The notes: generated by a model not told the origin, from the sequence alone. Shown: positions 14,907 through 38,221, counted from the stretch's first letter. The stretch is DNA of 64,000 nucleotides from Vulcanimicrobiota bacterium (GCA_019637395.1 JAHBVR010000009.1:266412-330411); one strand, 5' to 3'. Numbers and translations: made by a program.

Positions 14907-16169
14907 ATGCCGCGGTGGTTTCTTGTGTTTCTTCTAGTGGCCCCTGCCGGGCTTTCGGTTTCTGGCAAGGAGCCCTACGGCCTGGCGGTTGTGGACGAAG
15001 CTGGCCGCCTTGAGCGGGTGGCTCTGGAAAAGGCGGCCCGGCCGCTACTTCTCAGAGGTGCGGCCATGGCCATCGTGCTGGTGCGACGGGGCGGCCAGCC
15101 GGACGCGGTCAAGCAACTCAGTCAGCTCGGGCTGCTTCACGATCGGCAAATTTCCCCTTCCGGGCTTTATCTTTACGTCAGCCTGCAACCTCACTACAGC
15201 GAACTGCGCGCGGGAGCGCGCTTCAGCGCTGACCTGCCGGCCCGTCAACTGGAGAAAATCCGGAACCAGACGCTCAATCCCCAACTACGCGCGGAGCTCT
15301 ACCAGCAGGGCTTCGTGGACTCCCTTGGGGAATTGGAGCGGAGTCTTTCCCACAGTCTTTCGCTCAAGGATTGGCTGAAGGGAGCGACGCTCACCTTCAT
15401 AGCCTGCGGCACCCTTTATCTGGTGGGCTTTTGGGATTGGCTTTGGGCTACTCTCCCGGGGCGAGGCCTGTTCTGGCTGTGGTGCCTGACACCCATCGCG
15501 CGTGCCCGGCGGCGCCGGGAAAGGGAGCGAGCGCGCCTCGGGCAACTGCACCTGCTGCAAGGGCGAGCCGAGTCCCTGGAAAGGACGCAGCAGAACTCGC
15601 CGAGGTTGAATTCCGTCCAGCGCGCCGACCTGGCCTCGCTCCAGGAGCAAGTGAAGGCCGCCGCGCTCCTCGGCCTCTCGGAGTTAGCCGAACTTCGCGC
15701 TCGCCTGGAGGCCGAAAGCAGGCGCCTGGAACGGCTGCAACGCTGCCACACCTCCGGAAGCAACGAGCTACGCGAGGCTCAGCGGATATTTCAATCGATC
15801 CGGTCCACCCTGAAGTCCCGCAAAAAGACCCGGGCCTTGTTGCAGAGCCCGGAAGCACAGGCCCTGGAAGCCGAACTCAGACAAGAGTCCGACCTGCGTC
15901 AACACTACAGCGAAGCCGGCGCCAGCTTCGAAGAATTCGAGCAATCCGAGCTGCGCTGCAAAAATCTTCAGCAACGCGCGCGGGAGTTCGGGCAGATTCA
16001 CGGAGTGCTTCCGCGCGGCCCGCAAGTTCAAACGGGCTGGGCGACGGCCTCAGCCAGCAGCGAATCTCCCGGCTATCACGGCAGTTCGACTTCCCACTAC
16101 GACGACCGAAGCGGCAGCTACGACCCGCCCACCTCTTCGTCCGAGAGCTGGGCCGGCGGCGACTGGTGA
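14907..16169 (+). CDS. TPM-domain (YgcG-like) membrane protein with cytoplasmic coiled-coil and Ser/Gly-rich tail
   Basis: Signal-like N-terminus, TPM-like block IVLVRRGGQPD..LYLYVSLQPHYSELRAGARFS, TM LTFIACGTLYLVGFWDWLWATL, C-terminal SGSYDPPTSSSESWAGGDW. Confidence 0.5.
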   Translation: MPRWFLVFLLVAPAGLSVSGKEPYGLAVVDEAGRLERVALEKAARPLLLRGAAMAIVLVRRGGQPDAVKQLSQLGLLHDRQISPSGLYLYVSLQPHYSELRAGARFSADLPARQLEKIRNQTLNPQLRAELYQQGFVDSLGELERSLSHSLSLKDWLKGATLTFIACGTLYLVGFWDWLWATLPGRGLFWLWCLTPIARARRRRERERARLGQLHLLQGRAESLERTQQNSPRLNSVQRADLASLQEQVKAAALLGLSELAELRARLEAESRRLERLQRCHTSGSNELREAQRIFQSIRSTLKSRKKTRALLQSPEAQALEAELRQESDLRQHYSEAGASFEEFEQSELRCKNLQQRAREFGQIHGVLPRGPQVQTGWATASASSESPGYHGSSTSHYDDRSGSYDPPTSSSESWAGGDW

Positions 16170-16171
16170 AT

Positions 16172-17314
16172 CTACGATATCTGACCCAGGAATGAATAGA
16201 GGGGCAGAAAGATCGAGAGGATCACGGTGGCAACCAGACTGGCCACGCTGGCCAGCAGCAGGGGCTCCATGGCCGCGCTCATGGCGTCGACCGCGTAGTT
16301 CATTTCCAGGTCATAGTAGGCGCCGGCCCGTCCGAACATTTCGGGCATGCGCGAAGCCTGCTCGCCGGCCATCACCATGTGGGCCAACGAAGGCGGATAA
16401 ATATCCGGATTCATGGCCATATGGTCGGAGACCGGCTCGCCCTCGGTAATGGTTTTCTCCATGAACGGCGCATCTTGAATGAATTCCGGATTGCCACTGG
16501 CGCCGGCCGCCATGCGCAGGGTGCGGGCCAGGTCCATACCGGATGCCAGCATCGCTTCCACCGAGCAGCAGTAACGGGCGCAGGCACCCTTCTGAAGCAT
16601 CGATCCGATCAAGGGAATTCGGCGCAAAAATCGCCAGGTGGCCACCTGCCCATTGGGAGTTTTCAAGAACTCGCGTCCGGCCGTCAACACCACTCCGATG
16701 GTACCGACCAGCAGCAACCAGAATCCCGGCTGGCGCACGGCTTCGGTAATGAACATGATGATGCGCGTAATCAGCGGCAGAGGCACGTTCATGTCTTTGA
16801 AAATGGTGAGAAAGCTGGGCAGCACCGTGTAAAACATGAACAAGGTCAACACCACCGCCAGAATGAGCACGAAACAGGGATACGACATGGCCGACTTGAG
16901 ACGTTCGCGCAGACGATTATCGCGCTCCAACCAATCCGACAGACGTTCCAGTGAAGTATCCAGTTCACCCGTACGTTCGCCGATCTGAACCAGTGTCGAA
17001 TAGATCTTGGTAAAAATCCTGGGATAGAAGGTCATCTGGTAGGAAAGCACGTGACCTTGCGATACCTTCTCGGCCAGATCGCGGATCACTTCCCCGAAGT
17101 TGGGATACTCTTCCTGATGAGACAGGGTTTCCAGCGCCTGCACGATGGGCACGGCGTTGCGCAGCATCGTCGCCAATTGCCGGCTGAAGATGCACAGAGC
17201 CTGAGGGGGGACAGTGACTTTGGCTCGCCAGTCGCCAGGCGCCCCCGGTGCAGTACTCGGCGTAGGTGCGGCCATTGCCAGGAGATTTGATGTCAGGTTC
17301 ATTTGTCCTGGCAA
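16172..17314 (-). CDS. Type II secretion / type IV pilus platform protein (GspF/PilC family)
   Basis: Two T2SS-F repeats, FSRQLATMLRNAVPIVQAL and a second repeat, with 3 TM segments. N-terminal cytoplasmic lead shorter than usual. No adjacent secretion ATPase. Confidence 0.85.
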   Translation of the reverse strand: MPGQMNLTSNLLAMAAPTPSTAPGAPGDWRAKVTVPPQALCIFSRQLATMLRNAVPIVQALETLSHQEEYPNFGEVIRDLAEKVSQGHVLSYQMTFYPRIFTKIYSTLVQIGERTGELDTSLERLSDWLERDNRLRERLKSAMSYPCFVLILAVVLTLFMFYTVLPSFLTIFKDMNVPLPLITRIIMFITEAVRQPGFWLLLVGTIGVVLTAGREFLKTPNGQVATWRFLRRIPLIGSMLQKGACARYCCSVEAMLASGMDLARTLRMAAGASGNPEFIQDAPFMEKTITEGEPVSDHMAMNPDIYPPSLAHMVMAGEQASRMPEMFGRAGAYYDLEMNYAVDAMSAAMEPLLLASVASLVATVILSIFLPLYSFLGQIS

Positions 17315-17399
17315 ATGGCTGGATTATCCCACTCCAGGACTCCTTGTGGAGGGCGAGAAGTGCAGTGGGAAAGCTATCAAGTATGAGGAGTCTGTCAGG

Positions 17400-20300
17400 A
17401 TGTGCGGTATCGCAGGTCTGGTTTATGAATACAATTCAAGCACCCCGGCCAAGGATTGGCCGGCACTGGAAGAAGCCCTGCAGCGCCTGCGCAACCACAC
17501 TCCCGACTGGAATCAACCCGATCCCGTCTTGCCACTGTTGGATTCGGTGGAAGAGCAGTTGCGCGACATCCGCGAATGGCCTATTCTCAGCCAGCTCTGG
17601 TCCAACCCCGGCCGCCAAGAGCAACTGAATCAAGCAGCCATCGGTCTCGATTTCTGGGATCAGCAGCTGCAGAAAGCCACCACCTCCTCCGATCTCTCCA
17701 TTGCCCTGCTGGAAACCTGGAACGCCATCAGCGTGCGCGTGCGCGATATCGGCTGGACCCTCCAGCAAGACGCTCTGGGCGGTCTGCGGCGCTGCGCCGC
17801 TTTGCTGCCGCACGCCTGGCGGGACAATCCGAAAGCTTGTTTTGAAGCCTGGAAACTGACGGTTACGCTGGAGAACATCGGCCGCATGGAAGTGCGCGGT
17901 CGTGACTCGCTGGGGTTTTCGGTCATGGTTTCGTTTCCCGAGCGCGCCTCGCTGGGCGTCTGGCGTGACAAACTGAACGAAACCCAACAGCATTTGCTCC
18001 ATCAACGCCTGCAGGGAGTGGATCTGGTCGACCAGGCCATCGTGCTTGACGAGGCCAGCGTGATTTTTGTCTACAAAGTGGCCCAAGAAGTGGGCGCGCT
18101 GGGCGATAATGTAGCCCAGATCACTTCGCAAATGAAGAGGGACGAACTGCTCTGGCTGGCGCTGGCTCCGGAAACCTCCCGGGTCAACGTCTTCTCGCAC
18201 ACCCGCTGGGCTTCCAACGGAATCATCAGCGAGCCCAACTGCCATCCTATTTCCGAGCTGACTCTGAAGCAGAACGGCAAAACCAGTGGCGCGCCCTCGC
18301 CCCATCGCATCATGGTCTGCTTGAACGGCGATGTCGACAACTACCAGGAGCTGTGCGCCCGCATCACCTCCGAAACAGGCCGCACCATTCCCGCCAAAAT
18401 CACTACCGACACCAAGATCATCCCGGTACTGGTCGACTACAACTTCCAAAAATGCAAAGACATGCGCGAGGCCTTCATCAAGACGGTCCAGCACTGCGAA
18501 GGCTCGATCGCGGTCATCATGCACAACAGCCTGGAGCCGAAACGAATTTACCTGGCTCTGCGCGGCTCCGGCCAGGCCCTTTTCGTGGGATTGTGCCGTT
18601 ATGGCTATGTCTTTGCTTCCGAACTTTATGGCGTGGTCGAACAAACGCAGCGCTTTTTCCGCGTGGACGGCACCACCGAGCGCGTGCCCGGCAAGCCCGA
18701 CAGCGCCGGCCAGGTGGTGGTGCTCGAATCCAACGGCGCCGGCGAGATGGAGGCCGTGGAACTGTGGTCCTTCGACGGTGAGCGGCTGCCCTGCGACCAG
18801 GTGAAAATTCATCAGGCCGAGATCACCACCCGCGATATCAACCGCGGCTCCTTCTCCCATTATCTGCTCAAGGAGATCAACGAAGCTCCCGAGTCGATTC
18901 GCAAGACGCTGCGCGGCAAGTTCCAGCTGGACGCCGAGGCACGCCAGGCGCGCATGAACCTGGATTCCAAAGTCATTCCCGACGAAGCCCTGGAACGTCT
19001 GCGCCAGGGCCAAATTCGCCGGTTGCTCTTTATCGGCCAGGGCACGGCCGCCGTGGCCGGCCAGGCGGTGGCCGCCATCGCCTCCCGCGTGCTCGGTTCC
19101 AAGCTGGCCGTGCAGGCCATGAAAGCCACCGAACTGTCCGGCTACTCCATGGATCAAAAGCTGGACGATGCCCTCATCATCGCTATTTCCCAGTCCGGCA
19201 CCACCACCGACACCAACCGCACCGTGGACATGGCCAAAGCGCACGGGGCCACTGTCATGGCTATCGTCAACCGGCGCAATTCCGACCTGGTCTACAAGGT
19301 AGACGGCGTGCTCTATACCAGCGACGGCCGCGACATCGAGATGTCGGTGGCTTCCACCAAGGCTTTCTACAGTCAGGTGGTGGCCGGCTATCTGGTAACT
19401 TACCATCTGGCCAGCCTGCTCGGGCTGATGGAGCAGCAAGAGCTTTACCGCGAGCTGTCGGAGCTGATGCGCCTGCCCGACCTCATGAAAGCGGTGCTGG
19501 CTGACCCGGGGCGCATCCGCGAATTTGCCGAGCACTGGGCGCCCGTGCGCCGCGACTGGGCCATCGTGGGCAGCGGTCCCACTCGCGCCGCCGCCGATGA
19601 GATCCGCATCAAATTGAGCGAACTCTGCTACAAGTCGATCGCCACCGACTACATCGAGGACAAAAAGCACATTGATCTGTCGTCTGAGCCGCTTACGCTG
19701 GTGTGCGCCGCCGGTCTGCCGCTGGTGGCTCTGAAAGATGCGGTCAAGGAAGTGGCCATCTTCAAGGCCCATAAATCGGTGCCCATCGTGATTACCACCG
19801 AAGGATTTACGGCCTTCGAACCCTATGCCGCCGGCGTGCTCTACGTGCCCAAGAGCTCGGAAGCAGCTTCGGTGCTGCTCAACACACTGGTGGGCCATTT
19901 GTGGGGCTACTTCTGCGCCGGCGCCATCGATCGCGGCGCGGAACAGCTCCGCCACGCCCGCGCTCTGGCCGTGCAGGTCTTGACCGAGAGCGATAAAATC
20001 GAGCTTTCCCCCAGCCTGCTACGCCAGGTGCGCGACCTGGGGCGCCGTTTTCAAGACGAACTCTGGCGCGGCCGCTTCAACAGCAGCCTGTCGCTGGAGG
20101 TCGGCAGCAAACTGGGCGGGCTCTTCCAGTACTTCACCGGTGCCAGTTCGCTGCGCCAGTTCGCGGCCGAGTTCCAGGCGCCGCCTACCGCCGGCGGCGT
20201 GGCCGAGGTGCTCGTGCAATCGCTGTCGCAGGCCATCGCCGAGCTGAGCCGGCCCATCGACGCCATCAAACATCAGGCCAAGACGGTCACGGTGGGCATC

Positions 20301-20918
20301 TCCCGCCTCGAGGAAAGCTACGACGGCCCGCTCTTTGACGCTCTGCGCCAGCTCTCCATCGAACCCGATTCGGTGCCTTATGCCGATCTGGTCACCCTGC
20401 GAGTGGTCAGCCAGGCCGTGCGGGAGGTCTCGGGCATCACCTGCTACCAGGTGGATGGGCTGGGCACCATGGGCGAGGTAACGGCCGCCTCCACCGTCAA
20501 GGTGATTGCCAAGCTGGGACGAGCCGCCCAAATGCGCAGCCGCGCCGACAAGTCGCACGTGCTGGTGGGCACCAAGGAATGGTGCGTGCGTCGCGGCTCC
20601 ACCTACATCGGGCGCGGCCGCAAGGACCAATGCCCGATCATGATCGTACCCAGCGCTCCGCGCGGACAGGTCGAACGGCTGGCCCTGCTGCATCTGGATT
20701 TGCACGATCAACTGGCCATCGACCACAAGGTTTCGCTGTTGCGCGACCTGTCGGGTCGCTACGAGGACGTCAAAAGCCAGGTGCTGGAAACCGACGCGGA
20801 ATGGACGGACGCGGTTTTGGAGGGCATCTCCGCGGCCGATCTGATTTTGCTGCCCGTCGAACAACTTACCGAGCGCGTGCTGGCCTATTTTACCAAGGGC
20901 CAGGAAGCCAGAGTATGA
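17400..20918 (+). CDS. Giant GlmS-like glutamine amidotransferase (class II Ntn) with two SIS domains plus large insertion and C-terminal extension
   Basis: Start MCGIAGL (Cys2 nucleophile) with RBS GAGGAG 8 nt upstream. GATase-2 motifs RGRDSLGF and HTRWASNG. SIS motifs LFIGQGTA..SQSGTTTDT and WAIVGSGPTRAAADE. 1172 aa against about 610 for canonical GlmS. Confidence 0.8.
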   Translation: MCGIAGLVYEYNSSTPAKDWPALEEALQRLRNHTPDWNQPDPVLPLLDSVEEQLRDIREWPILSQLWSNPGRQEQLNQAAIGLDFWDQQLQKATTSSDLSIALLETWNAISVRVRDIGWTLQQDALGGLRRCAALLPHAWRDNPKACFEAWKLTVTLENIGRMEVRGRDSLGFSVMVSFPERASLGVWRDKLNETQQHLLHQRLQGVDLVDQAIVLDEASVIFVYKVAQEVGALGDNVAQITSQMKRDELLWLALAPETSRVNVFSHTRWASNGIISEPNCHPISELTLKQNGKTSGAPSPHRIMVCLNGDVDNYQELCARITSETGRTIPAKITTDTKIIPVLVDYNFQKCKDMREAFIKTVQHCEGSIAVIMHNSLEPKRIYLALRGSGQALFVGLCRYGYVFASELYGVVEQTQRFFRVDGTTERVPGKPDSAGQVVVLESNGAGEMEAVELWSFDGERLPCDQVKIHQAEITTRDINRGSFSHYLLKEINEAPESIRKTLRGKFQLDAEARQARMNLDSKVIPDEALERLRQGQIRRLLFIGQGTAAVAGQAVAAIASRVLGSKLAVQAMKATELSGYSMDQKLDDALIIAISQSGTTTDTNRTVDMAKAHGATVMAIVNRRNSDLVYKVDGVLYTSDGRDIEMSVASTKAFYSQVVAGYLVTYHLASLLGLMEQQELYRELSELMRLPDLMKAVLADPGRIREFAEHWAPVRRDWAIVGSGPTRAAADEIRIKLSELCYKSIATDYIEDKKHIDLSSEPLTLVCAAGLPLVALKDAVKEVAIFKAHKSVPIVITTEGFTAFEPYAAGVLYVPKSSEAASVLLNTLVGHLWGYFCAGAIDRGAEQLRHARALAVQVLTESDKIELSPSLLRQVRDLGRRFQDELWRGRFNSSLSLEVGSKLGGLFQYFTGASSLRQFAAEFQAPPTAGGVAEVLVQSLSQAIAELSRPIDAIKHQAKTVTVGISRLEESYDGPLFDALRQLSIEPDSVPYADLVTLRVVSQAVREVSGITCYQVDGLGTMGEVTAASTVKVIAKLGRAAQMRSRADKSHVLVGTKEWCVRRGSTYIGRGRKDQCPIMIVPSAPRGQVERLALLHLDLHDQLAIDHKVSLLRDLSGRYEDVKSQVLETDAEWTDAVLEGISAADLILLPVEQLTERVLAYFTKGQEARV

Positions 20919-26858: not shown

Positions 26859-27127
26859 GCACGGAAGCGAATTGACGGCTCGTGCCCATCGAAACCCACC
26901 CAAGATGACGCCCTCAACAGGATGCTCGCGCGAGGATTGATCCGCCCCCCCGAGCCAAATATCAGCTATGCCAGGCCACGGGCACATTGTTCCGAGCACG
27001 TCTGGCCGGACCGGGATGATCGTCTTTGAAGTTCTGGGATTCTTCGGCTCTACGCCGTAGTGCTCGTCGAGCCCAGAACTCCGGAGGCCCTCCAAATTCG
27101 CAGCCTGGACCCTGAGTTGGCGGTCTG

Positions 27128-27560
27128 ATGGGCTCGGAGATCGAATGCCGGACGGCCATTGTCCGCAAGCGCCGCGAGAGAGTGCTCGACCAGGCCTCGC
27201 TCAGGCTGGCTCTACAAGGCCTGAGTCAGCTTCTGCGTACGTGTTCTGAAGTGCTGCCATCGACGGAGATCAAAAGGATAGCCGGCCGAATTGGTGACCG
27301 CCACCCTCTCCACGCAGCCGCCGCTCGATTTTGTTGCTTTGACTTAAGGTTGCGGGATGCCGCGCGAGCAGACGGTTTCGGTTGGTCCCCGCCCAAGTCT
27401 AAAGCGCGATCTTGCCCTTTACGTGCTCAACGAAATTTATTGGCGTGATAAGCGCGGACACGAGACCGATCTGGTTTTGCCGTCTCGCCACGGCCGGCTG
27501 ATCACCATCGAATGTCAATGGGCGTTCCGTCGTCAGTATCCCGAGGGAGCCAACCGGGTG
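27128..27560 (+). pseudogene. Decayed C-terminal fragment of an AAA_14/DUF4143-type ATPase gene (frameshifted, N-terminally truncated)
   Basis: Frame +2 IKRIAGR..RFCCFDLRL resembles the DUF4143 middle region. Frame +3 YWRDKRGHETDLVL..ITIECQW resembles the restriction-endonuclease-like C-terminus (YYWR..EVDFVL..IEVK). Stops in all frames near 27335-27350. No room for the N-terminal ATPase domain. Confidence 0.4.
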
Positions 27561-27648
27561 GTTGCCAGTGACGTCGACACCTCCTACCACCGGCAATTCG
27601 ACGAGCTAACCGTGGAGTTTCTCGGATTGAAGGACCTGGTGGAAAGCT

Positions 27649-30600
27649 TTAAACGGACCCGCCCGTCTTCAGCAGGTCCACCACATATTTGCCCAGCAGT
27701 TTGGTCTGGGTGGTGGAGATTTCCGCGAACTTGGCGCTGTGGGTCCAACCGATGCCGGCCTCATCGTGACGGGAGCTGATCACTTCGCAGTTGAGTTCGA
27801 GCTTGTCGTGATTGCCCAACGGACCCATATGCAACGTGAAGCGGGTGGTCGGACTCAACGGTCGGTCCACGGCCAGCAAAGCGCCGCCCAAGCCGATGTC
27901 GAGGGCGGTACCAGGGTGGCGCTCTTTGGTCTTGAGGTCAATTTCGATCGGCAGGTTGGCGGCCGCGCGCGTATATTTGCGCTGGTTGAAGACTTTCGAC
28001 TGCATGCCAATTTTGTTGAGAACAGTGATGACCCAGGATTTGCCCAACACCTCAGGTGATTCCTCGAACTGCAGACCGATGTCGAACTTACCCTCTTCAT
28101 CGCGGCTGGGACGCAACCATACAATACGGGCCGTTACGGGATCTTTGACGCGAGCTTCGGGCAGTGGATTGGAAACCTGAATCAACTGACCGCGCTGAAA
28201 GTTGCTGGCAGGCCCTTGCAGCTTGCCGCCGCCGAGGCTGATGTCGACCAGCTTCACGCTGACAGGACGGCCTTCCAGGTAGGCGCTGGTGTCGTAACTG
28301 CAAGCCAGACGAACGAGGCGGCGACGTTCCTGGGCACTCGCTCCTCCATCAAAGGAAGGCGCGGTGGCGACCGCTGCTTCCACCGCACCAGGAGGAGGCG
28401 CCGCCACCGCCTCCTCGGCAGCCACTTCTTCAATGGCCGCCTCCAGGCTGGTTTCAGACGAGGGTTGGCTGACTGGCGCTTCTTCAGTAGGAGCGACGGG
28501 CGCGGCGGTGGGCTCCGCCAGCGGTTCATCCAACCAGGAGGCGGTGGTCGGCCCGGCATCTCCGAAGAAGTCACCGCCTACGTCCATGCTCTCACCCGAG
28601 CCGACCAACAGGTCCTCGCCACTGGCGGCAGGGCTATCGATGACGGCCAGCGGCTCACTGGAAGCGAAGAAATCCTCTTCCCCCGAGACGATGGGTTGCC
28701 CTTCGAAGAGGTCGTCGGGCCCGGGCAGCTCCGCGCTGACGAATTCTGTTACCGGCTCCTCAAAGACGGGTTCCGTCACCTGCTGGTCGGGCCCCTCAAA
28801 CAAGTTCGCGGGACCGGCCAGTTCCCCGGAAACCTCGACCGCGATCGGCTCTTCCACTTCGGCCGGAGCTTCAACCGCGATCGGCTCTTCCACCTCGACC
28901 GGAGCTTCAAACGCGATCGGTTCTTCCACCTCGACCGGCGCTTCGACCGCGATCGGCTCTTCCACCTCGGCCGGAACTCCAACCGCGATCGGTTCTTCCA
29001 CCTCGGCCGGCGCTTCGACCGCGATCGGCTCTTCCACCTCGGCCGGAGCTTCAACCGTGATCGGCTCCTCCACCTCGATCGGCGCTTCGACCGCGATCGG
29101 CTCTTCCACCTCGACCGGAGCTTCGACCGCGATCGGCTCCTCCACCTCGGCAGGCGCTTCGACGGCGATCGGCTCTTCCACCTCGGCCGGAACTTCGACC
29201 GCGATCGGCTCTTCCACCTCGGCCGGAGGCTCGACCGCGATCGACTCCTCTACCTCGATCGGCGCTTCGACCGCGATCGGTTCTTCCACCTCGGCAGGAG
29301 GCTCGATCAGGATCGGCTCCTCCAGCTCAACCGGAGCCTCGGGCGCATCAACCTGCAGCGGCTCATCGATGACAACTTCTGTCATCTCGGCTTCAGGTTC
29401 GAGCAGGTCCAGATCGTCGTCGAGCGCCAGCTCGTCAAAGTCGAGATGATCCAGGTCGACGTCGGCCAGCTCACCCAGGTCGAGTTCGTCTTCGCTTACC
29501 TCGAGATCGAATGCCCCCACTTCCAGCTCATCGAGTTCCTCCAGAGCACCGAGATCGTAGTCCACCTGCGCATCCAGGAAAGGCTCCAAACCCTCTGAGT
29601 CGTCGATATCATACGCACGATCGGCCTCTGCATCAGCTACTGCCGGGGCCAACTCCAGGTCGTCTTCCAACTCGAGGTCGAGATCATCCAGGAAGGGAGC
29701 ACCCAGCTCCTCGTCCACCAGCTCGGCCTCGTCCTCGTCGAACAAGAGATTGGCGTCCAGCTCATCTAGAGCGAGCAAATCATCGCCTTCCAGGTCGAGG
29801 TTGTCATAGTCAAACTCGCCGAGCTCATCCAGGTCCAGATCGCCGACATCGAGGTCGCCAAGCTCGAACTCCTCCCCGCTGAGGTCAAGGTCGTCGAGGA
29901 GGTCGTCCTGCAGGAGCAACTCATCATCTTCGGGGATGGCCGGAAGATCCTCAGCGGTGATGTCCTGAGGTTCAAATAAGGGAGCACGGGCGGCCGGTTT
30001 TTCGGCTCGCGACAGCCAGGCCAGCGGAGCGGGCTTGGGCTGGCCGGCGGGGGACCTCCTGGTCGGCGTCTCCCCTGAACTCAAGCTGAACGGCTGGGGC
30101 TTGGGACGCCTTGGCCGGCGAACCGGAGGGCTATCGCCTCCCAGGCGCAACTCGGTGGCCGGTGGATGCGTGCGAGCCTTGCGCTCCACGCGCACCGACA
30201 GCCAGCTCGGGGTCTCGGCCGAGCCGGCGGGTTTTCTGAGTTCGAAATCAGGGGAGGAGCGTTCGCTCTCGACCGGCCGCGAGTAATAGTAGGGGACATC
30301 GTCTTCAAAGTCCTGGTCGCGATAGAGCGGACCCCGGGCGCGCACCGGCTGGTAGTCTTCGCGGGTGAACTCTTCCCGAGAACGATGGAACTTGGAAAAA
30401 TGTTGGGTTATCCGGGTGCGCGGATCGGCCGTTCGCTCAAAAGATTCTTCACTATCCGAGCGGCGGCGGCGTTCCCGGTAGATACCCGGGACATCCACGG
30501 CGGCGGAGATTTGTCCGAGCAGTCGGGCCCGTTCTTGCTCGGCTTCCCAAATCAGTTGCTCGGTGAGGCGAACCGAGCGTCCGTCCTGGCGGCGAACCTC

Positions 30601-30834
30601 CAGTTCACGCTTGAGGCTGTGGAGAATTTCTTCAACGTCCGCCAGACTCTCGCGTAAGTTCTGGAGACGGAGCAAGGCCAGCCGATCGGCGGCGTAGTTG
30701 ACCATGTCCTGCAGCCCGCTGGTCTCGCGACTGCGCCGGGCCAGTGGCGGCAAGTCAGGATCAACCGCTCCCTCAAAAGAGGAAGCAGCCTGCCGCAGCC
30801 TGCCGGGTAGGTCTGATCCTTGATACTCCGCCAT
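27649..30834 (-). CDS. Large acidic repeat protein with C-terminal tandem PilZ (c-di-GMP receptor-like) domains
   Basis: 1061 aa: coiled-coil N-domain, Pro/Arg-rich linker, about 200-aa D/E/L-rich low-complexity region, 14 copies of PAEVEEPIAVEA, then two PilZ motifs (RRRLVRL..DISLGGGKLQ and QRKYTRA..DIGLGGALLAV). Confidence 0.8.
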   Translation of the reverse strand: MAEYQGSDLPGRLRQAASSFEGAVDPDLPPLARRSRETSGLQDMVNYAADRLALLRLQNLRESLADVEEILHSLKRELEVRRQDGRSVRLTEQLIWEAEQERARLLGQISAAVDVPGIYRERRRRSDSEESFERTADPRTRITQHFSKFHRSREEFTREDYQPVRARGPLYRDQDFEDDVPYYYSRPVESERSSPDFELRKPAGSAETPSWLSVRVERKARTHPPATELRLGGDSPPVRRPRRPKPQPFSLSSGETPTRRSPAGQPKPAPLAWLSRAEKPAARAPLFEPQDITAEDLPAIPEDDELLLQDDLLDDLDLSGEEFELGDLDVGDLDLDELGEFDYDNLDLEGDDLLALDELDANLLFDEDEAELVDEELGAPFLDDLDLELEDDLELAPAVADAEADRAYDIDDSEGLEPFLDAQVDYDLGALEELDELEVGAFDLEVSEDELDLGELADVDLDHLDFDELALDDDLDLLEPEAEMTEVVIDEPLQVDAPEAPVELEEPILIEPPAEVEEPIAVEAPIEVEESIAVEPPAEVEEPIAVEVPAEVEEPIAVEAPAEVEEPIAVEAPVEVEEPIAVEAPIEVEEPITVEAPAEVEEPIAVEAPAEVEEPIAVGVPAEVEEPIAVEAPVEVEEPIAFEAPVEVEEPIAVEAPAEVEEPIAVEVSGELAGPANLFEGPDQQVTEPVFEEPVTEFVSAELPGPDDLFEGQPIVSGEEDFFASSEPLAVIDSPAASGEDLLVGSGESMDVGGDFFGDAGPTTASWLDEPLAEPTAAPVAPTEEAPVSQPSSETSLEAAIEEVAAEEAVAAPPPGAVEAAVATAPSFDGGASAQERRRLVRLACSYDTSAYLEGRPVSVKLVDISLGGGKLQGPASNFQRGQLIQVSNPLPEARVKDPVTARIVWLRPSRDEEGKFDIGLQFEESPEVLGKSWVITVLNKIGMQSKVFNQRKYTRAAANLPIEIDLKTKERHPGTALDIGLGGALLAVDRPLSPTTRFTLHMGPLGNHDKLELNCEVISSRHDEAGIGWTHSAKFAEISTTQTKLLGKYVVDLLKTGGSV
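28838..29345. repeat. 36-bp tandem repeat, about 14 copies (codes for the 12-aa PAEVEEPIAVEA units)
   Basis: Plus-strand unit ggctcttccacctcggccggagcttcgaccgcgatc reiterated with point variants. Confidence 0.85.
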
Positions 30835-30975
30835 ACGAGATGTGCGGCAACGCTACGCCATAAAAAGCAAACACCCTGGTGTTTCCAGGGGTCTCGCTAC
30901 CGCCGATATGTGACTCCAGTTCCCTTGGTGCGACCGTTCAGGATCGTCTCTCCCGAACTCTGTCAAGCTGACCTG

Positions 30976-31518
30976 CTAGGCCGAATCCAGGTCGCTAAAT
31001 TCGTTGACCACCTCACGAACTTTTCTGGGCCTGGCGGCTTCCCGGTCACGCCGGGGGGGGACTTCTCGGGAGACCTGCTCAGCCCTGCGTGGAGGCCGCT
31101 CACCGCTATAAAAACGCTCGGCACTGCCCCAACCACGCCCGCGCTCGCGACTGCGGCGACTCTCTTCCTCAGCGCGCACGGCGGCGTCGATAATGTGGTG
31201 CAGGCGCACCCGCTCCGACTCCGCCAGGCGAATGAAATTCTGAATCAGACCAAGAGGGCGTCCTTCATCGGTACGCCGCGTCTCATCATCGCGCAGGCCC
31301 CGCACGATGGCCTCCACGTCTTCCAGCGCCTCTTGTAGAGCTTCCAAGCGGAGAGTGGCCAGACGGTCTTGGGCCAGGCCCAACAACTCCTCCAACCGGG
31401 TCTCTTCCTCCACGCGAGCGTGGTAGGAATTATTATTTTCCGCTTCGAGAAAAAGCTCTTCCAACGCCTCGGCTTCAGCACGCAGGCGGGACGCTAGTTC
31501 GAAGGAGGACTCACGCAT
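30976..31518 (-). CDS. Hypothetical coiled-coil protein, paralog of the N-terminal domain of the tandem-PilZ protein
   Basis: LATLRLEALQEALEDVEAIVRGLRDDETRRTDEGRPLGLIQNFIRLAESERVRLHHIIDAAV aligns with LALLRLQNLRESLADVEEILHSLKRELEVRRQDGRSVRLTEQLIWEAEQERARLLGQISAAV in the downstream protein. Confidence 0.6.
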   Translation of the reverse strand: MRESSFELASRLRAEAEALEELFLEAENNNSYHARVEEETRLEELLGLAQDRLATLRLEALQEALEDVEAIVRGLRDDETRRTDEGRPLGLIQNFIRLAESERVRLHHIIDAAVRAEEESRRSRERGRGWGSAERFYSGERPPRRAEQVSREVPPRRDREAARPRKVREVVNEFSDLDSA

Positions 31519-31672: not shown

Positions 31673-31942
31673 ATGTCCCATCAACCCAACATCGAAATCT
31701 ATACCTGGCAGACCTGCCCTTATTGCCGCAGAGCGAAAGCCCTGCTTGACTCCAAAGGAGTCAGTTACCATGAGATCTCGGTCGACGGCGATGAAGCGGC
31801 CCGCGACGCCATGGCGCAGCGCACCGGTGGCAAGCGCTCCGTTCCTCAAATCTTTATCAACGGCCAACATATCGGTGGCTGCGACGACCTTCACGCTCTC
31901 GACGCCCGTGGAGGCCTCGATCCACTGCTGAAAGCCACCTGA
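31673..31942 (+). CDS. grxC: Glutaredoxin 3
   Basis: CPYC active site. Near-colinear with E. coli Grx3 (VPQIFINGQHIGGCDDLHALDARGGLDPLL). Confidence 0.85.
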   Translation: MSHQPNIEIYTWQTCPYCRRAKALLDSKGVSYHEISVDGDEAARDAMAQRTGGKRSVPQIFINGQHIGGCDDLHALDARGGLDPLLKAT

Positions 31943-34278: not shown

Positions 34279-34662
34279 ATGAGCGATACCCCGAAAATCT
34301 TAGTGGTGGACGACGATGAGCACATCCTTCGCTCACTCAGTCAGTATTTAGAGCTGGAAGACTTCAACGTAGTCAGTGCCTCGAGTGGTCCCGAAGCTCT
34401 CGCGCTCTTCGCCCAAGAAAAACCCGATTTGCTGGTTCTTGACGTGATGATGCCCGGCATGGACGGCTTCCAGGTCTTGGAAACATTACGCAAGGACCCC
34501 GAAACCGCCGGCGTGCCCGTGCTCATGCTGACGGCCCGCGACCAGCACAACGATATTCTCAAAGGCTACCAGATGGGAGCCACCTCCTATCTGGTCAAAC
34601 CCTTCAACTTGGACGAACTCGTGGAAGCCATTCGCGAGGTCTTCGCCAGCAAATCCAGTTAA
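34279..34662 (+). CDS. Single-domain response regulator (CheY-like receiver)
   Basis: ILVVDDDE, phospho-acceptor DLLVLDVMMPGMDG, LMLTAR, K in LVKPF. 127 aa. Confidence 0.85.
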   Translation: MSDTPKILVVDDDEHILRSLSQYLELEDFNVVSASSGPEALALFAQEKPDLLVLDVMMPGMDGFQVLETLRKDPETAGVPVLMLTARDQHNDILKGYQMGATSYLVKPFNLDELVEAIREVFASKSS

Positions 34663-35628: not shown

Positions 35629-36645
35629 ATGCGCGTCTTTGTAACGGGAGCCACGGGTTTTATCGGAAGAGAGATCGTCCGCCACCTGCAGCAGGCGGGA
35701 CACGATGTCTTCGCCCTGTGCCGCAACCCCGACGATTTGTACGTCAGCAACGTGCAAAAGGTACAGGGTGATATCCTCCAACCTCATACCTTTGAAGCCC
35801 AACTGCGCGAAGCCGAAGCCTGCGTTCACTGCGTCGGCATTCTGCGCGCCTTTCCAGAGAAAGGCATCACTTTTGAAAAACTGCATTATCAGGCCACCCT
35901 CAACCTGGTGCGAGCCTGCGGCAAAGTGGGCGCGCAACGCTTCATCCACATCAGCGCCAACGGCGTGGAGAAGCATCCCACCACCGAGTATATGCGTTCC
36001 AAAGCCAAGTCTGAACAGGCGGTCCGCTCTTCTAGCCTGGATTGGACGATTCTGCGACCCTCGGTCGTTTACGGCGGCAACCCCAACAAAGAAAACTTCG
36101 TCAAAATGCTGCGCGACAATCTTTCCAAGACCAGCCTGTTTCCCTATTTTGGCAAGGGCGAGTATTGCCTGGCGCCCATCTCCACCTGGGAACTGGCCGA
36201 AACCGTGCGCCGCTGCCTGGAGAATCGCGACAGCGTGGGCAAAGTCTACCATCTGGGTGGCGACGAGGTCTATACCTATAAGGCGCTGCTACACTTGATT
36301 TGCGAGGCGGGCGGCTACAAAACGAAGCTTTTCTCCTTGCCTCCGGTGCTGATGAGCACGGCCGCCGGCCTGCTGGGCGGCTTCAAATGGTTTCCCATGA
36401 CCACCGATATGTTGCGCATGCTGACGAGCGGCAATGACATGCCCGCCAACGCTCAGACGCAAAAGGTGCTGGAGGTTCCCAGCGTCAGCTTCCGAGGCTG
36501 GCTCCATCACGGGTTGATGGAACCGGCCGGAGCGGCCGCCTTGACCGAAAAATCCGCAGCCCGCGTCACCACTCAATTGCAGCCCGACGACGCCCCCGCC
36601 GTCAACGCTACCCAACCGCTCAACTCAGAGGACGCCCCAGCATAG
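35629..36645 (+). CDS. NAD(P)-binding atypical SDR (NmrA/epimerase-dehydratase-like)
   Basis: VFVTGATGFIGREIV Rossmann motif, 338 aa. Confidence 0.8.
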   Translation: MRVFVTGATGFIGREIVRHLQQAGHDVFALCRNPDDLYVSNVQKVQGDILQPHTFEAQLREAEACVHCVGILRAFPEKGITFEKLHYQATLNLVRACGKVGAQRFIHISANGVEKHPTTEYMRSKAKSEQAVRSSSLDWTILRPSVVYGGNPNKENFVKMLRDNLSKTSLFPYFGKGEYCLAPISTWELAETVRRCLENRDSVGKVYHLGGDEVYTYKALLHLICEAGGYKTKLFSLPPVLMSTAAGLLGGFKWFPMTTDMLRMLTSGNDMPANAQTQKVLEVPSVSFRGWLHHGLMEPAGAAALTEKSAARVTTQLQPDDAPAVNATQPLNSEDAPA

Positions 36646-38221
36646 CCTCCCCACTGTCCCGAGCACTGCGGTGCAGGCCTTCCAGGACCGCCTCGGCGCC
36701 CTGCAGCTCGTCCAACCGATCCAGTTGCTCCAGGCATTCCAGCCAGATCGACTGCTGCTCGCCTTTGCGCGCATAGGCGGCGGCCGAAGCGAAAGATTGG
36801 GCCGCTCCCTCGAGCTCGCCCCGGGCCAGGCACAAATAGCCGCGCTCGCGTAGCGCCTCACAGCGCAGAGCCGCATCTTTGGGAACCTCGTTGAGCACCT
36901 CGATGGCCAGCATCAAATTACGATTGCATTCGTACAGTCTTCCACGCAAACGCTCAAGGCGGGCGGTCAGGATATAGATCTGAGCGGAATCGGCCGGACC
37001 GGTTCCCTGGCCCAGCATCCAGCCGGCCGCCTGCAAATCCTGACCGGCCTCCTCCAGCAAATTGCGCTCGATCAAGGTACGACTGCGCTCGACCCGAGCC
37101 CGCAGCACGGGATTGCGTTCCCCCAACTGCAAGAACCGCTCCAGACTTTCCGAGAAGAGTTGGCAGGCCTGCTGATTGTCACCCTGAGCTCGATAGGATA
37201 AGCCCAGACTGCTCAAAGCATAGGCCAGAGCGCGGTAGTTGCCAAAGCGCCGGCACATTTCCACGTCCAGTTGGTGAAAGCGAATGGCCCGCGGATAGTC
37301 CCCCAATTTCATACACAGGTTGCCCAGACGGCCGTAGACGACGGCCAGCTCCGACTCGGCTCCCAGGCGGCGGCTCAGCCGCTCGGCTTTGTAAGTGAAG
37401 TGCAGCGCCTCGGTAATCTTGCCCAGGTCGCTGCAAACCTGACCCAGGCCTTCGTAAGCTTTGGCCACGCCGATCCACATCTGCAAATGCCAGTAGGCGC
37501 GCAAAGCTTGTTCAAGGAACTCGAGAGCCCGTTGCGGCTCCCCCTGCTCCTGGTGGAGGAGTCCCAACAAACGGCAGGCCTCGGCCTGGCAACGATCGGG
37601 TCGAGAACGCGGCCGTTCCATCACGTGCAGCCAGGCTTCCTCGGCCTGGTCGAAGCGGTGCAGGCGGAAAAGCACCCGGCCTCGCTCGATGTCGCTTTCG
37701 TCGTCTCCGAGCTGGGGCAGCATGCGTAAAGCTTCCCGCAATTCCCCGGCCCGCACCAACAGGCGCGCTTTCTCCAGTTGCCAGGCGCGCGCGAACTGCC
37801 CCTCCGGGTCCCATTGCCGGGACAGCAGCAAGGCCTGCTGAGCCTGCTCCTGCTCGCCATACATACCATGAATCTGGGCCGAAAGAATCAGGGCGCGAAC
37901 CAACAACGGCTTGAGGGTGATGGAGGTACGCCGGCACAGCAACCCGTCCAACTCATGGGAAGCCTGATCCCAACGCTGTAACTGTACCAACAACTCGGAA
38001 CGCCACAGGCGAATGGCTGCTTTCTGATCGGCCAGACAGGGGTCGTCGGCGGCTTCCTCTTCGAGCCGATCCAGCCAGGCTCCGCCTAGCTCGAGAGCCC
38101 GGCCATAATCAAAACGCGAAAGGCTGTCTTCAATCGTCTCCAGGAAATGCCGGCATAGCTCTACGGCTCGAGCTTGCGTCAGGTAGATTGCGACCAACTT
38201 TTCTAAACTTGCAGGTTGCAA
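36620..38221 (-). CDS. TPR-repeat protein
   Basis: Reiterated TPR-like helix pairs (LGNLCMKLGDYPRAIRFHQ, LAYALSSLGLSYRAQGD and others). No HTH or enzymatic domain recognised. Confidence 0.65.
   Translation of the reverse strand: MQPASLEKLVAIYLTQARAVELCRHFLETIEDSLSRFDYGRALELGGAWLDRLEEEAADDPCLADQKAAIRLWRSELLVQLQRWDQASHELDGLLCRRTSITLKPLLVRALILSAQIHGMYGEQEQAQQALLLSRQWDPEGQFARAWQLEKARLLVRAGELREALRMLPQLGDDESDIERGRVLFRLHRFDQAEEAWLHVMERPRSRPDRCQAEACRLLGLLHQEQGEPQRALEFLEQALRAYWHLQMWIGVAKAYEGLGQVCSDLGKITEALHFTYKAERLSRRLGAESELAVVYGRLGNLCMKLGDYPRAIRFHQLDVEMCRRFGNYRALAYALSSLGLSYRAQGDNQQACQLFSESLERFLQLGERNPVLRARVERSRTLIERNLLEEAGQDLQAAGWMLGQGTGPADSAQIYILTARLERLRGRLYECNRNLMLAIEVLNEVPKDAALRCEALRERGYLCLARGELEGAAQSFASAAAYARKGEQQSIWLECLEQLDRLDELQGAEAVLEGLHRSARDSGEAMLGRPLS

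Follow-up and report, generated by a model that had tools for sequence, protein, structure and literature searches.

A gene pair of Vulcanimicrobiota encodes a putative c-di-GMP receptor with tandem PilZ domains behind a long polyanionic region

Introduction

PilZ receptors are the most widespread effectors of cyclic di-GMP (c-di-GMP), with outputs known for about a dozen only, and an extra arginine ahead of their RxxxR motif (RRxxxR) accompanies dimeric, intercalated binding of the ligand (bioRxiv 10.1101/2020.02.11.943704). The C-terminal helix of the PilZ domain is a common output surface, and canonical PilZ-PilZ tandems with helices and motifs have already been described in Bll4394, Blr5568 and SMc00999 (bioRxiv 10.1101/814665). 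Here we analysed a 64,000-nucleotide stretch of DNA from a Vulcanimicrobiota bacterium (GCA_019637395.1, JAHBVR010000009.1:266412-330411; hereafter the window), in which a tandem of this kind ends a protein of 1061 amino acids (aa) and a small gene upstream encodes a paralog of that protein's N-terminal domain (N-domain). The two genes had been singled out in an earlier reading made from the DNA alone (the sequence-only reading). Both open reading frames (ORFs) are present on the minus strand, at 27649-30834 (1061 aa plus stop) and 30976-31518 (180 aa).

From its N-terminus, the large protein consists of the N-domain, a basic linker, a polyanion, a cluster of short motifs and the PilZ-PilZ module. 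This architecture is common to the homologous proteins P0001-P0011, P0112 and P0113 and to the large ORFs of loci L001, L003 and L004. We tentatively read the locus as a lineage-specific cytoplasmic c-di-GMP effector module of Candidatus Xenobia that would act as a scaffold or tether, and we give this reading slightly less than an even chance.

Results

Two PilZ domains at the C-terminus of the large protein

The Pfam PilZ model (PF07238; gathering cut-off 22.5 bits) matched the large protein in two stretches, with 79.7 bits (E = 2.2e-22) for the whole protein, and each half exceeded the cut-off alone when scanned separately. PilZ-1 (28000-28353, minus strand; residues 828-945) scored 48.3 bits (E = 1.4e-12), and PilZ-2 (27652-27999, minus strand; residues 946-1061) scored 41.3 bits (E = 2e-10). 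The sequence-only reading had proposed a PilZ-type c-di-GMP receptor, and the two domains support it as a putative one. It had also given both domains the motifs RxxxR and DxSxGG. This holds for RxxxR, which takes the form RRxxxR in PilZ-1 (ERRRLVR) and QRxxxR in PilZ-2 (QRKYTR), and for the DxSxxG of PilZ-1 (DISLGG), but PilZ-2 has DxGxxG in its place (DIGLGG).

Among 13 aligned homologs (about 40-99% identity), ERR[RK]LVRL and D[IV]SLGG were invariant in PilZ-1; one member has DVSLGG for DISLGG, and the domain conforms to the pattern [D/N]hSxxG. In PilZ-2, NQRK[YF]TRA and D[IL]GLGGAL were invariant, and a conserved C-terminal helix, TKLLGKYVVDLLK, ends the domain. PilZ-2 is expected to adopt the PilZ fold with uncertain ligand binding, and it may not bind c-di-GMP.

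An AlphaFold2 (AF2) model of the C-terminus, with a predicted local distance difference test (pLDDT) score of 80.8, contained two beta-barrels, each followed by an alpha-helix (107-118 and 214-230), in keeping with the six-stranded barrel and C-terminal helix of PilZ. Confidence was low precisely at the two RxxxR loops, as expected of ligand-free PilZ. The best fold matches of this model in the Protein Data Bank (PDB) were PlzA, MrkH, MotI, YcgR and PlzD (Foldseek E 1e-8 to 1e-5), and the single-domain matches BcsA, Alg44 and MapZ had template-modelling scores of 0.64-0.76, normalised by target length.

PF07238 was the sole Pfam match to the module, with none to PilZN or YcgR_N, and the first barrel keeps RxxxR, DxSxxG and its helix, unlike PilZN. 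Two canonical domains that each keep the helix are the hallmark of the canonical PilZ-PilZ class. The members of that class stand alone at 200-280 aa, whereas 827 residues precede the module here and full-length relatives have 907-1374 aa. TIGR02266 of NCBIfam, the Myxococcus-type PilZ paralog domain, reached 29.7 bits on PilZ-2 only, below its cut-off of 68.7. By motifs and modelled fold, the C-terminal module is classed as a PilZ family member of the canonical PilZ-PilZ layout.

An orphan helical domain and its ancient paralog

The N-domain (30460-30834, minus strand; residues 1-125) is a helical module paralogous to the small protein, a relationship that had been proposed from shared residues and that proper alignment upheld. 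In BLASTP, the small protein matched residues 37-113 of the large protein with 47% identity over 78 aa (E = 1e-11), and residues 1-115 of the large protein align with it as a whole. Among 1.84 billion representative proteins, a profile of the small family picked out large proteins at E = 7e-13, 9e-10 and 1e-9, which makes the paralogy significant on the scale of the database. In a neighbour-joining tree, small proteins and large N-domains formed two separate clades; the duplication is therefore older than the diversification sampled. Branches were shorter in the small clade, and the small protein is an ancient, far more conserved paralog of the N-domain.

The product of the small gene (30976-31518, minus strand) starts with a three-helix core that is acidic (residues 1-125), continues as a disordered basic tail and ends in EFSDLDSA, an acidic tip at the C-terminus. 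Its AF2 model had a mean pLDDT of 77.6, rising above 90 over residues 40-125, with helices at 5-29, 32-85 and 90-130 followed by the disordered tail. A coiled coil had been proposed for the N-domain, and the model of its paralog agrees in so far as the fold is helical. Across the small family, the median net charge was -11 for the core and +8 for the tail (before the last 12 residues), the tail was net positive in 76 of 81 homologs, and the acidic tip was usual.

For the N-domain and the small protein, profile searches of Pfam, NCBIfam, PHROGs, PADLOC and PDB sequences gave nothing above noise. The N-domain thus classifies as an orphan domain, with no match to a described family in these libraries. 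One small homolog (P0064) bears the JGI label 'YaaR/DUF327', which we could not reproduce: in a Pfam scan at E <= 10, none of 18 small-family members matched DUF327.

P0001, the NCBI entry identical to the large protein, is given a start at Met27. P0003, P0006 and P0009 keep residues 1-26, and the small paralog's first helix aligns with them. This conservation in homologs and paralog makes the ATG at 30834 a likelier start of the large gene than Met27.

Distribution of the gene pair

Relatives of the large protein, full-length at 907-1374 aa and 40-100% identical, came from metagenome-assembled genomes (MAGs) of Candidatus Eremiobacteraeota and Vulcanimicrobiota and were labelled 'PilZ domain-containing protein' only; L001, L003 and L004 hold further full-length copies. 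The small protein had 85 relatives at 55-92% identity, all unnamed. An exhaustive HMMER search of the 1.84 billion proteins with the small-family profile found 16 clusters only, and a homolog search with the C-terminal fragment found 8 proteins only. A scan of one genome per GTDB species gave nine loci; the informative labels among them name Vulcanimicrobiota (Eremiobacterota), its class Ca. Xenobia and Ca. Eremiobacteraeota. Judging by these matches, the family is lineage-restricted, and the gene pair is conserved throughout class Ca. Xenobia of this phylum. Kept family-wide are the N-domain, the [DE][DE][LF]FxGP motifs described below, the tandem PilZ module and both RxxxR motifs.

Four loci labelled otherwise, L008, L011 and L015 ('uncultured Burkholderiales') and L009 (Selenomonadaceae), carry the module of a glutaredoxin gene (grx), the small gene and the large gene at 59-89% identity. 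These labels are probably binning or classification errors.

The sequence-only reading had recognised no described family here, and our searches agreed: neither the N-domain nor the full architecture had a match in Pfam, NCBIfam, PHROGs, PADLOC or PDB sequences. The literature that we searched on PilZ in Eremiobacterota, on acidic or disordered PilZ proteins and on PilZ scaffolds held no description of the present architecture. Within these libraries and this literature, the N-domain family and the full domain combination are undescribed, the tandem PilZ itself being already known.

A polyanion that keeps its charge while its sequence turns over

Between the N-domain and the PilZ domains, we found each of the low-complexity segments that had been described from the DNA alone: a Pro/Arg-rich linker, a long polyanionic region fused to PilZ and 14 tandem repeat copies. 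The linker (29965-30459, minus strand; residues 126-290, pI 9.7) holds 24 prolines and 24 arginines and carries short conserved aromatic motifs, VPGIYRERRRR, PYYYSRP and SWLSVRVERK, seen among P0003-P0009. The polyanion that follows (residues 291-825, 535 aa) has a net charge of about -176 and one basic residue.

The first part of the polyanion is a D/E/L-rich region of the DLDLELEDDLEL type (29350-29964, minus strand; residues 291-495), in which 42% of residues are acidic and 35% hydrophobic, with no clear helical or strand periodicity; the net charge over residues 291-515 is about -92. The tandem array (28835-29341, minus strand) consists of 14 copies of a 36-bp unit that encodes the 12-aa repeat IAVEAPAEVEEP, the same unit that had earlier been given in a different register as PAEVEEPIAVEA. 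Tandem Repeats Finder counted 14.1 copies, with 84% matches and 0 indels.

All 15 family members examined have a polyanion, of 355-902 residues and a net charge of -134 to -446. The repeat units are unrelated across lineages: IAVEAPAEVEEP in the window, PPAEVEEP[IM]VEEAIELA (17-18 aa) in P0006, EPEVIEEPVIEAL in P0010, a DLEDEELDEA type in L004, ELALEDEELDLEDEE in L001 and EELAEELELEE in L003. Charge and length of the polyanion thus appear to be conserved, or under selection, and its sequence does not, as would be typical of a spacer or docking region that is disordered. Repeat number also varied among relatives, as the sequence-only reading had suggested checking: P0001 and P0002 differ by 5 repeat units, and P0004 and P0005 by 4, the proteins being otherwise identical. 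Such indels are either real polymorphism or assembly collapse.

We considered whether the large gene is an artefact, that is, a low-complexity antisense ORF or a mis-assembled repeat. The plus strand does have long ORFs across the repeat (28216-29598, 460 aa; 28364-29449, 361 aa), repeat arrays in short-read MAGs collapse or gap easily, as with the N-gap within the L004 gene, and the copy-number differences between near-identical proteins could be assembly errors. The plus-strand ORFs, antisense to the array, are however limited to the repeats and of a Ser/Arg/Thr-rich low-complexity, nonsense type; we regard them as by-products of a repeat in a GC-rich genome and not as genes. The minus-strand frame, by contrast, carries two Pfam-significant PilZ domains and a conserved N-domain, and full-length homologs down to 40% identity come from independent assemblies. 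These findings leave the artefact with next to no probability and effectively refute it as an account of the whole gene; the one uncertainty is the exact number of repeats.

In public assemblies, the large gene is often broken by N-gaps or contig ends inside the acidic repeats (L004 4508-9047; P0100-P0103, P0108 and P0109), which yields spurious 350-400-aa 'PilZ proteins' and N-terminal fragments of 140-260 aa. Matches of 348-400 aa were accordingly rejected as short natural variants, being fragments from assembly gaps in repeats. Repeat-rich genes of this kind are systematically fragmented or mis-started in MAG annotations.

The same charge might instead make the protein a decoy or chaperone, in which the acidic region, as a mimic of nucleic acid or polyphosphate, would sequester basic proteins, and PilZ with c-di-GMP would gate capture and release. 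Its targets would be nucleoid-associated proteins, ribosomal proteins or the basic tail of the small paralog, comparable to those of eukaryotic acidic histone chaperones. Such a role would fit the conservation of an extreme charge (net -134 to -446, hardly any Lys or Arg) in a region whose sequence is not conserved, the conserved basic tail of the partner paralog, the Arg-rich segment adjoining the polyanion in the large protein itself and a housekeeping, origin-proximal neighbourhood (dnaX, ybaB, recR, SMC). We nevertheless consider it unlikely. Characterised DNA-mimic proteins are small, folded, ordered acidic arrays and differ from these 500-aa Leu/Pro-rich low-complexity regions; about one-third of the acidic-region residues are hydrophobic, which fits docking or activation-domain-like fuzzy binding equally well; and the housekeeping context is not kept in other lineages.

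Another use of about 250 carboxylate side chains per molecule would be a cation buffer or store, in which the D/E-rich region binds Ca2+, Mg2+ or metals with high capacity and low affinity, in the manner of calsequestrin, under c-di-GMP control. The alternating acidic and hydrophobic residues of the 12-aa repeat could become ordered on cation binding. We judge this highly improbable: PilZ receptors have no known link to ion buffering, no transporter is conserved in the neighbourhood, and the idea leaves the pair of N-domain and paralog and the conserved FxGP motifs unexplained.

Conserved short motifs before PilZ-1

A cluster of short motifs of the type [DE][DE][LF]FxGP (28549-28809, minus strand; residues 676-762) comprises ANLFEGP, DDLFEGQ, EDFFASS and GDFFGDA in the large protein. 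Motifs of this type sit between the polyanion and PilZ-1 in every member. A regular expression found 1-4 copies in 15 of 15 members, regardless of the acidic repeat type, and extra near-matches to FxGP were recognised by eye, up to five in L003.

With dnaX nearby, we considered these motifs as candidates for binding the beta clamp. The beta-clamp-binding consensus is QL[SD]LF, and the motifs here were rejected for lack of its Gln and Leu positions; the idea was dropped also because loci without neighbouring dnaX keep the FxGP motifs.

Both proteins lack a hydrophobic segment. The highest Kyte-Doolittle mean over 19 aa in the large protein was 0.95, too low for a transmembrane segment, and both proteins are therefore predicted to be cytoplasmic.

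Genomic neighbourhood

The gene order in the window is yidC-jag-mnmE-mnmG-rsmG (plus strand), the pair (minus strand), then grx, a gene for a small membrane protein, dnaX, a receiver gene, ybaB and recR (plus strand), and L006 has the same order. In other lineages, the pair follows HD-GYP-alaS-grx (L001, L004) or a ClpB-like AAA gene (L003). The order grx-small-large was found in 10 of 14 loci.

The glutaredoxin gene (31673-31942, plus strand; Pfam Glutaredoxin E = 2.6e-25) is the most constant neighbour. It lies directly upstream of the small gene and divergent from it in 13 of 13 loci matched by tblastn, even with the large gene elsewhere. The promoter region common to the two genes suggests co-regulation.

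The sequence-only reading had taken a hint from the position of the pair, where parAB normally follows rsmG. This hint did not hold: the pair runs convergent with rsmG on the opposite strand, and the adjacency is limited to the window's own sub-lineage. We rejected a link to parAB on this ground and because the 64-kb window holds no ParA-type Walker A gene; given the varied neighbourhoods across lineages, the 'parAB position' is therefore incidental.

These observations bear on whether the large protein could be a polar or positional landmark, or a condensate hub, like HubP/FimV or PopZ. Coiled-coil self-assembly would localise it, the acidic repeats would recruit clients such as ATPases of the ParA/MinD type, and PilZ would make this recruitment dependent on c-di-GMP; the large protein, being acidic, could undergo phase separation jointly with the basic-tailed small paralog. 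In HubP, regions for coiled-coil dimerisation are combined with a large cytosolic domain of acidic repeats, where partners dock, and with a protein-binding region at the C-terminus (PMC8789113), and the layout here is formally similar. The paralogs have tails of opposite charge, and the conserved short motifs could serve as client-binding sites. On the other hand, there is no LysM, transmembrane helix, FimV or PopZ domain and no evident route for reading the pole, the window lacks a ParA-type gene, and the association with the parAB position is lineage-specific. We regard a landmark as decidedly unlikely.

Several further features of the region deserve mention. Upstream of grx-small-large in two distant lineages, and not in the window, lies an HD/HD_5 gene of the HD-GYP type, possibly for a c-di-GMP phosphodiesterase, followed by alaS (L001 4262-6679; L004 1-107). 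In the 790 bp that separate rsmG from the large gene's 3' end (26859-27648) lies a remnant (ORF 27357-27779, plus strand) with a weak match to the C-terminal end of DUF4143 (E = 4.7e-4, below the cut-off), probably a decayed AAA-ATPase gene; the corresponding gap in L006 is only 25 bp.

Between dnaX and ybaB-recR, an unusual site for a CheY-like protein, a stand-alone response-regulator receiver gene (34279-34662, plus strand; 127 aa, Pfam E = 3e-34) is kept at 90-95% identity in L006-L008. A TPR_12/TPR_MalT-like protein of 533 aa is encoded at 36620-38221 (minus strand). Its L005 ortholog (15450-17120; full-length, 34% identity, E = 5e-85) lies 3.3 kb from the large PilZ gene, though the remaining neighbourhood differs; in L001, L003 and L004 the surroundings of the pair lack it. 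This protein could be a reader of the FxGP motifs or reflect residual synteny only. Upstream of the rpmH-rnpA-yidD-yidC cluster, a GlmS-like GATase_6/7 plus SIS protein is encoded at 17214-20918 (plus strand); its 1234 aa are about double the length of an ordinary GlmS, and L006 has it too (1172 aa).

A hairpin between the two genes

The 141-nt spacer between the genes (30835-30975) contains a hairpin, CCCCTGG-aaaca-CCAGGG with a U-rich tract (30864-30890, minus strand), about 30 nt upstream of the ATG of the large gene. The hairpin is kept nearly base for base in L006 and L007, where the large proteins, P0006 for L006 and P0008 for L007, are about 55-62% identical, and about 90 nt around it are almost identical there, better conserved than the flanking proteins. 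The fold of the whole spacer had a z-score of only -1.68, the number of terminator-like sites in the region was not above chance, distant lineages did not have the hairpin in its present form, and Rfam found nothing in the window. This element may be a terminator or attenuator that sets the small-to-large ratio, or an element of the 5' untranslated region, and is statistically unremarkable. The spacer also holds an upstream ORF of two codons (ATG GCG TAG).

Discussion

In the scaffold or tether that we favour, the paralogous helical hairpins would homo- or hetero-oligomerise and so anchor the large protein, whose N-domain hairpin would probably pair with the basic-tailed small paralog. The polyanion would be an intrinsically disordered spacer or docking surface. 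c-di-GMP would bind PilZ-1, whose RRxxxR form makes an intercalated dimer probable, and may also bind PilZ-2, there as a monomer given QRxxxR and possibly weakened by DxGxxG. By analogy with YcgR, PlzA and MrkH, the bound ligand would change the orientation of both barrels and of their C-terminal helices, and this would switch the binding of some partner or of the FxGP motifs close by. The result would be a scaffold or tether under second-messenger control.

Four findings weigh against this account. PilZ-2 departs from [D/N]hSxxG by a Ser-to-Gly change in 13 of 13 homologs. The 64-kb window contains no c-di-GMP enzymes by motif (no GGDEF), nor EAL or motility genes near the pair. The large gene stands alone after rplM-rpsI in L005, and the small gene alone in L012 and L013, so the partnership may not be obligate. 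Finally, a fold search with the N-domain returned generic helical hairpins only, which gave no functional clue.

A more specific version would have the paralogs form a c-di-GMP-gated electrostatic assembly, in which co-oligomerising hairpins bring together tails of about +8 and about -180 in a cytoplasmic, charge-patterned hub or condensate. The [DE][DE][LF]FxGP motifs would recruit clients, and c-di-GMP occupancy of PilZ-PilZ would set the state of the hub. We rate this as improbable, a long shot. If true, a second messenger would here run a soluble positional organiser to which no known bacterial landmark protein is homologous.

The architecture joins a double canonical PilZ to an orphan, putative oligomerisation domain through one of the longest polyanions in bacterial cytoplasmic proteins, within a two-gene module conserved over a whole class of an almost uncultured phylum. 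The scaffold or tether proposed here could reveal a new mode of c-di-GMP output by tethering, sequestration or assembly control. For the evolution of disordered regions, the family offers a natural case in which charge and length are kept while sequence turns over completely. The natural Ser-to-Gly variant in a PilZ-PilZ tandem also gives a chance to ask whether both domains bind the ligand.

Among known proteins, the closest likeness in spacer composition is to Pro/Glu/Val repeats. The IAVEAPAEVEEP repeat has one proline per 6 residues, and a pattern of this kind, rich in P, E and V, should make the spacer extended, non-globular and polyproline-II-like. The EP/KP region of TonB, the central acidic repeats of MamJ and the PEVK region of titin are similarly P/E/V-rich; the resemblance is one of composition only, not of homology, context or function.

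In overall layout, the large protein shares with HubP/FimV coiled-coil oligomerisation, very long acidic repeats (client docking in HubP) and a C-terminal interaction module (PMC8789113). HubP/FimV proteins have a periplasmic LysM, a single transmembrane helix and a FimV C-terminal/TPR domain, none of which was found here by Pfam or hydropathy, and HubP lacks PilZ; the likeness does not extend to homology. PopZ of Caulobacter is cytoplasmic and combines a helical oligomerisation domain with a Pro/Glu-rich acidic disordered linker, much as here. It is about 180 aa long and has no nucleotide sensor, whereas the acidic region here is 5-10 times longer, and no PopZ-family Pfam match was found.

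The closest structural matches to the C-terminal module, YcgR, MotI/DgrA, PlzD, PlzA and MrkH, are 8-16% identical to it in sequence. They likely share with it a common principle, in which c-di-GMP bound at the linker re-orients two barrels. Their N-terminal barrel (PilZN/xPilZ) lacks the binding motifs and the C-terminal helix, both of which are kept here, and their partners (flagellar motor, DNA) have no support at this locus. Nearest in layout, the basis on which we compare them, are Bll4394 and Blr5568 of Bradyrhizobium and SMc00999 of Sinorhizobium, which also have two canonical barrels, each with a C-terminal helix, and both RxxxR motifs. Those proteins stand alone at about 230 aa and are mainly alphaproteobacterial, whereas here the tandem forms the C-terminus of a 900-1400-aa protein that adds an orphan N-domain, a polyanion and the DxGxxG of PilZ-2.

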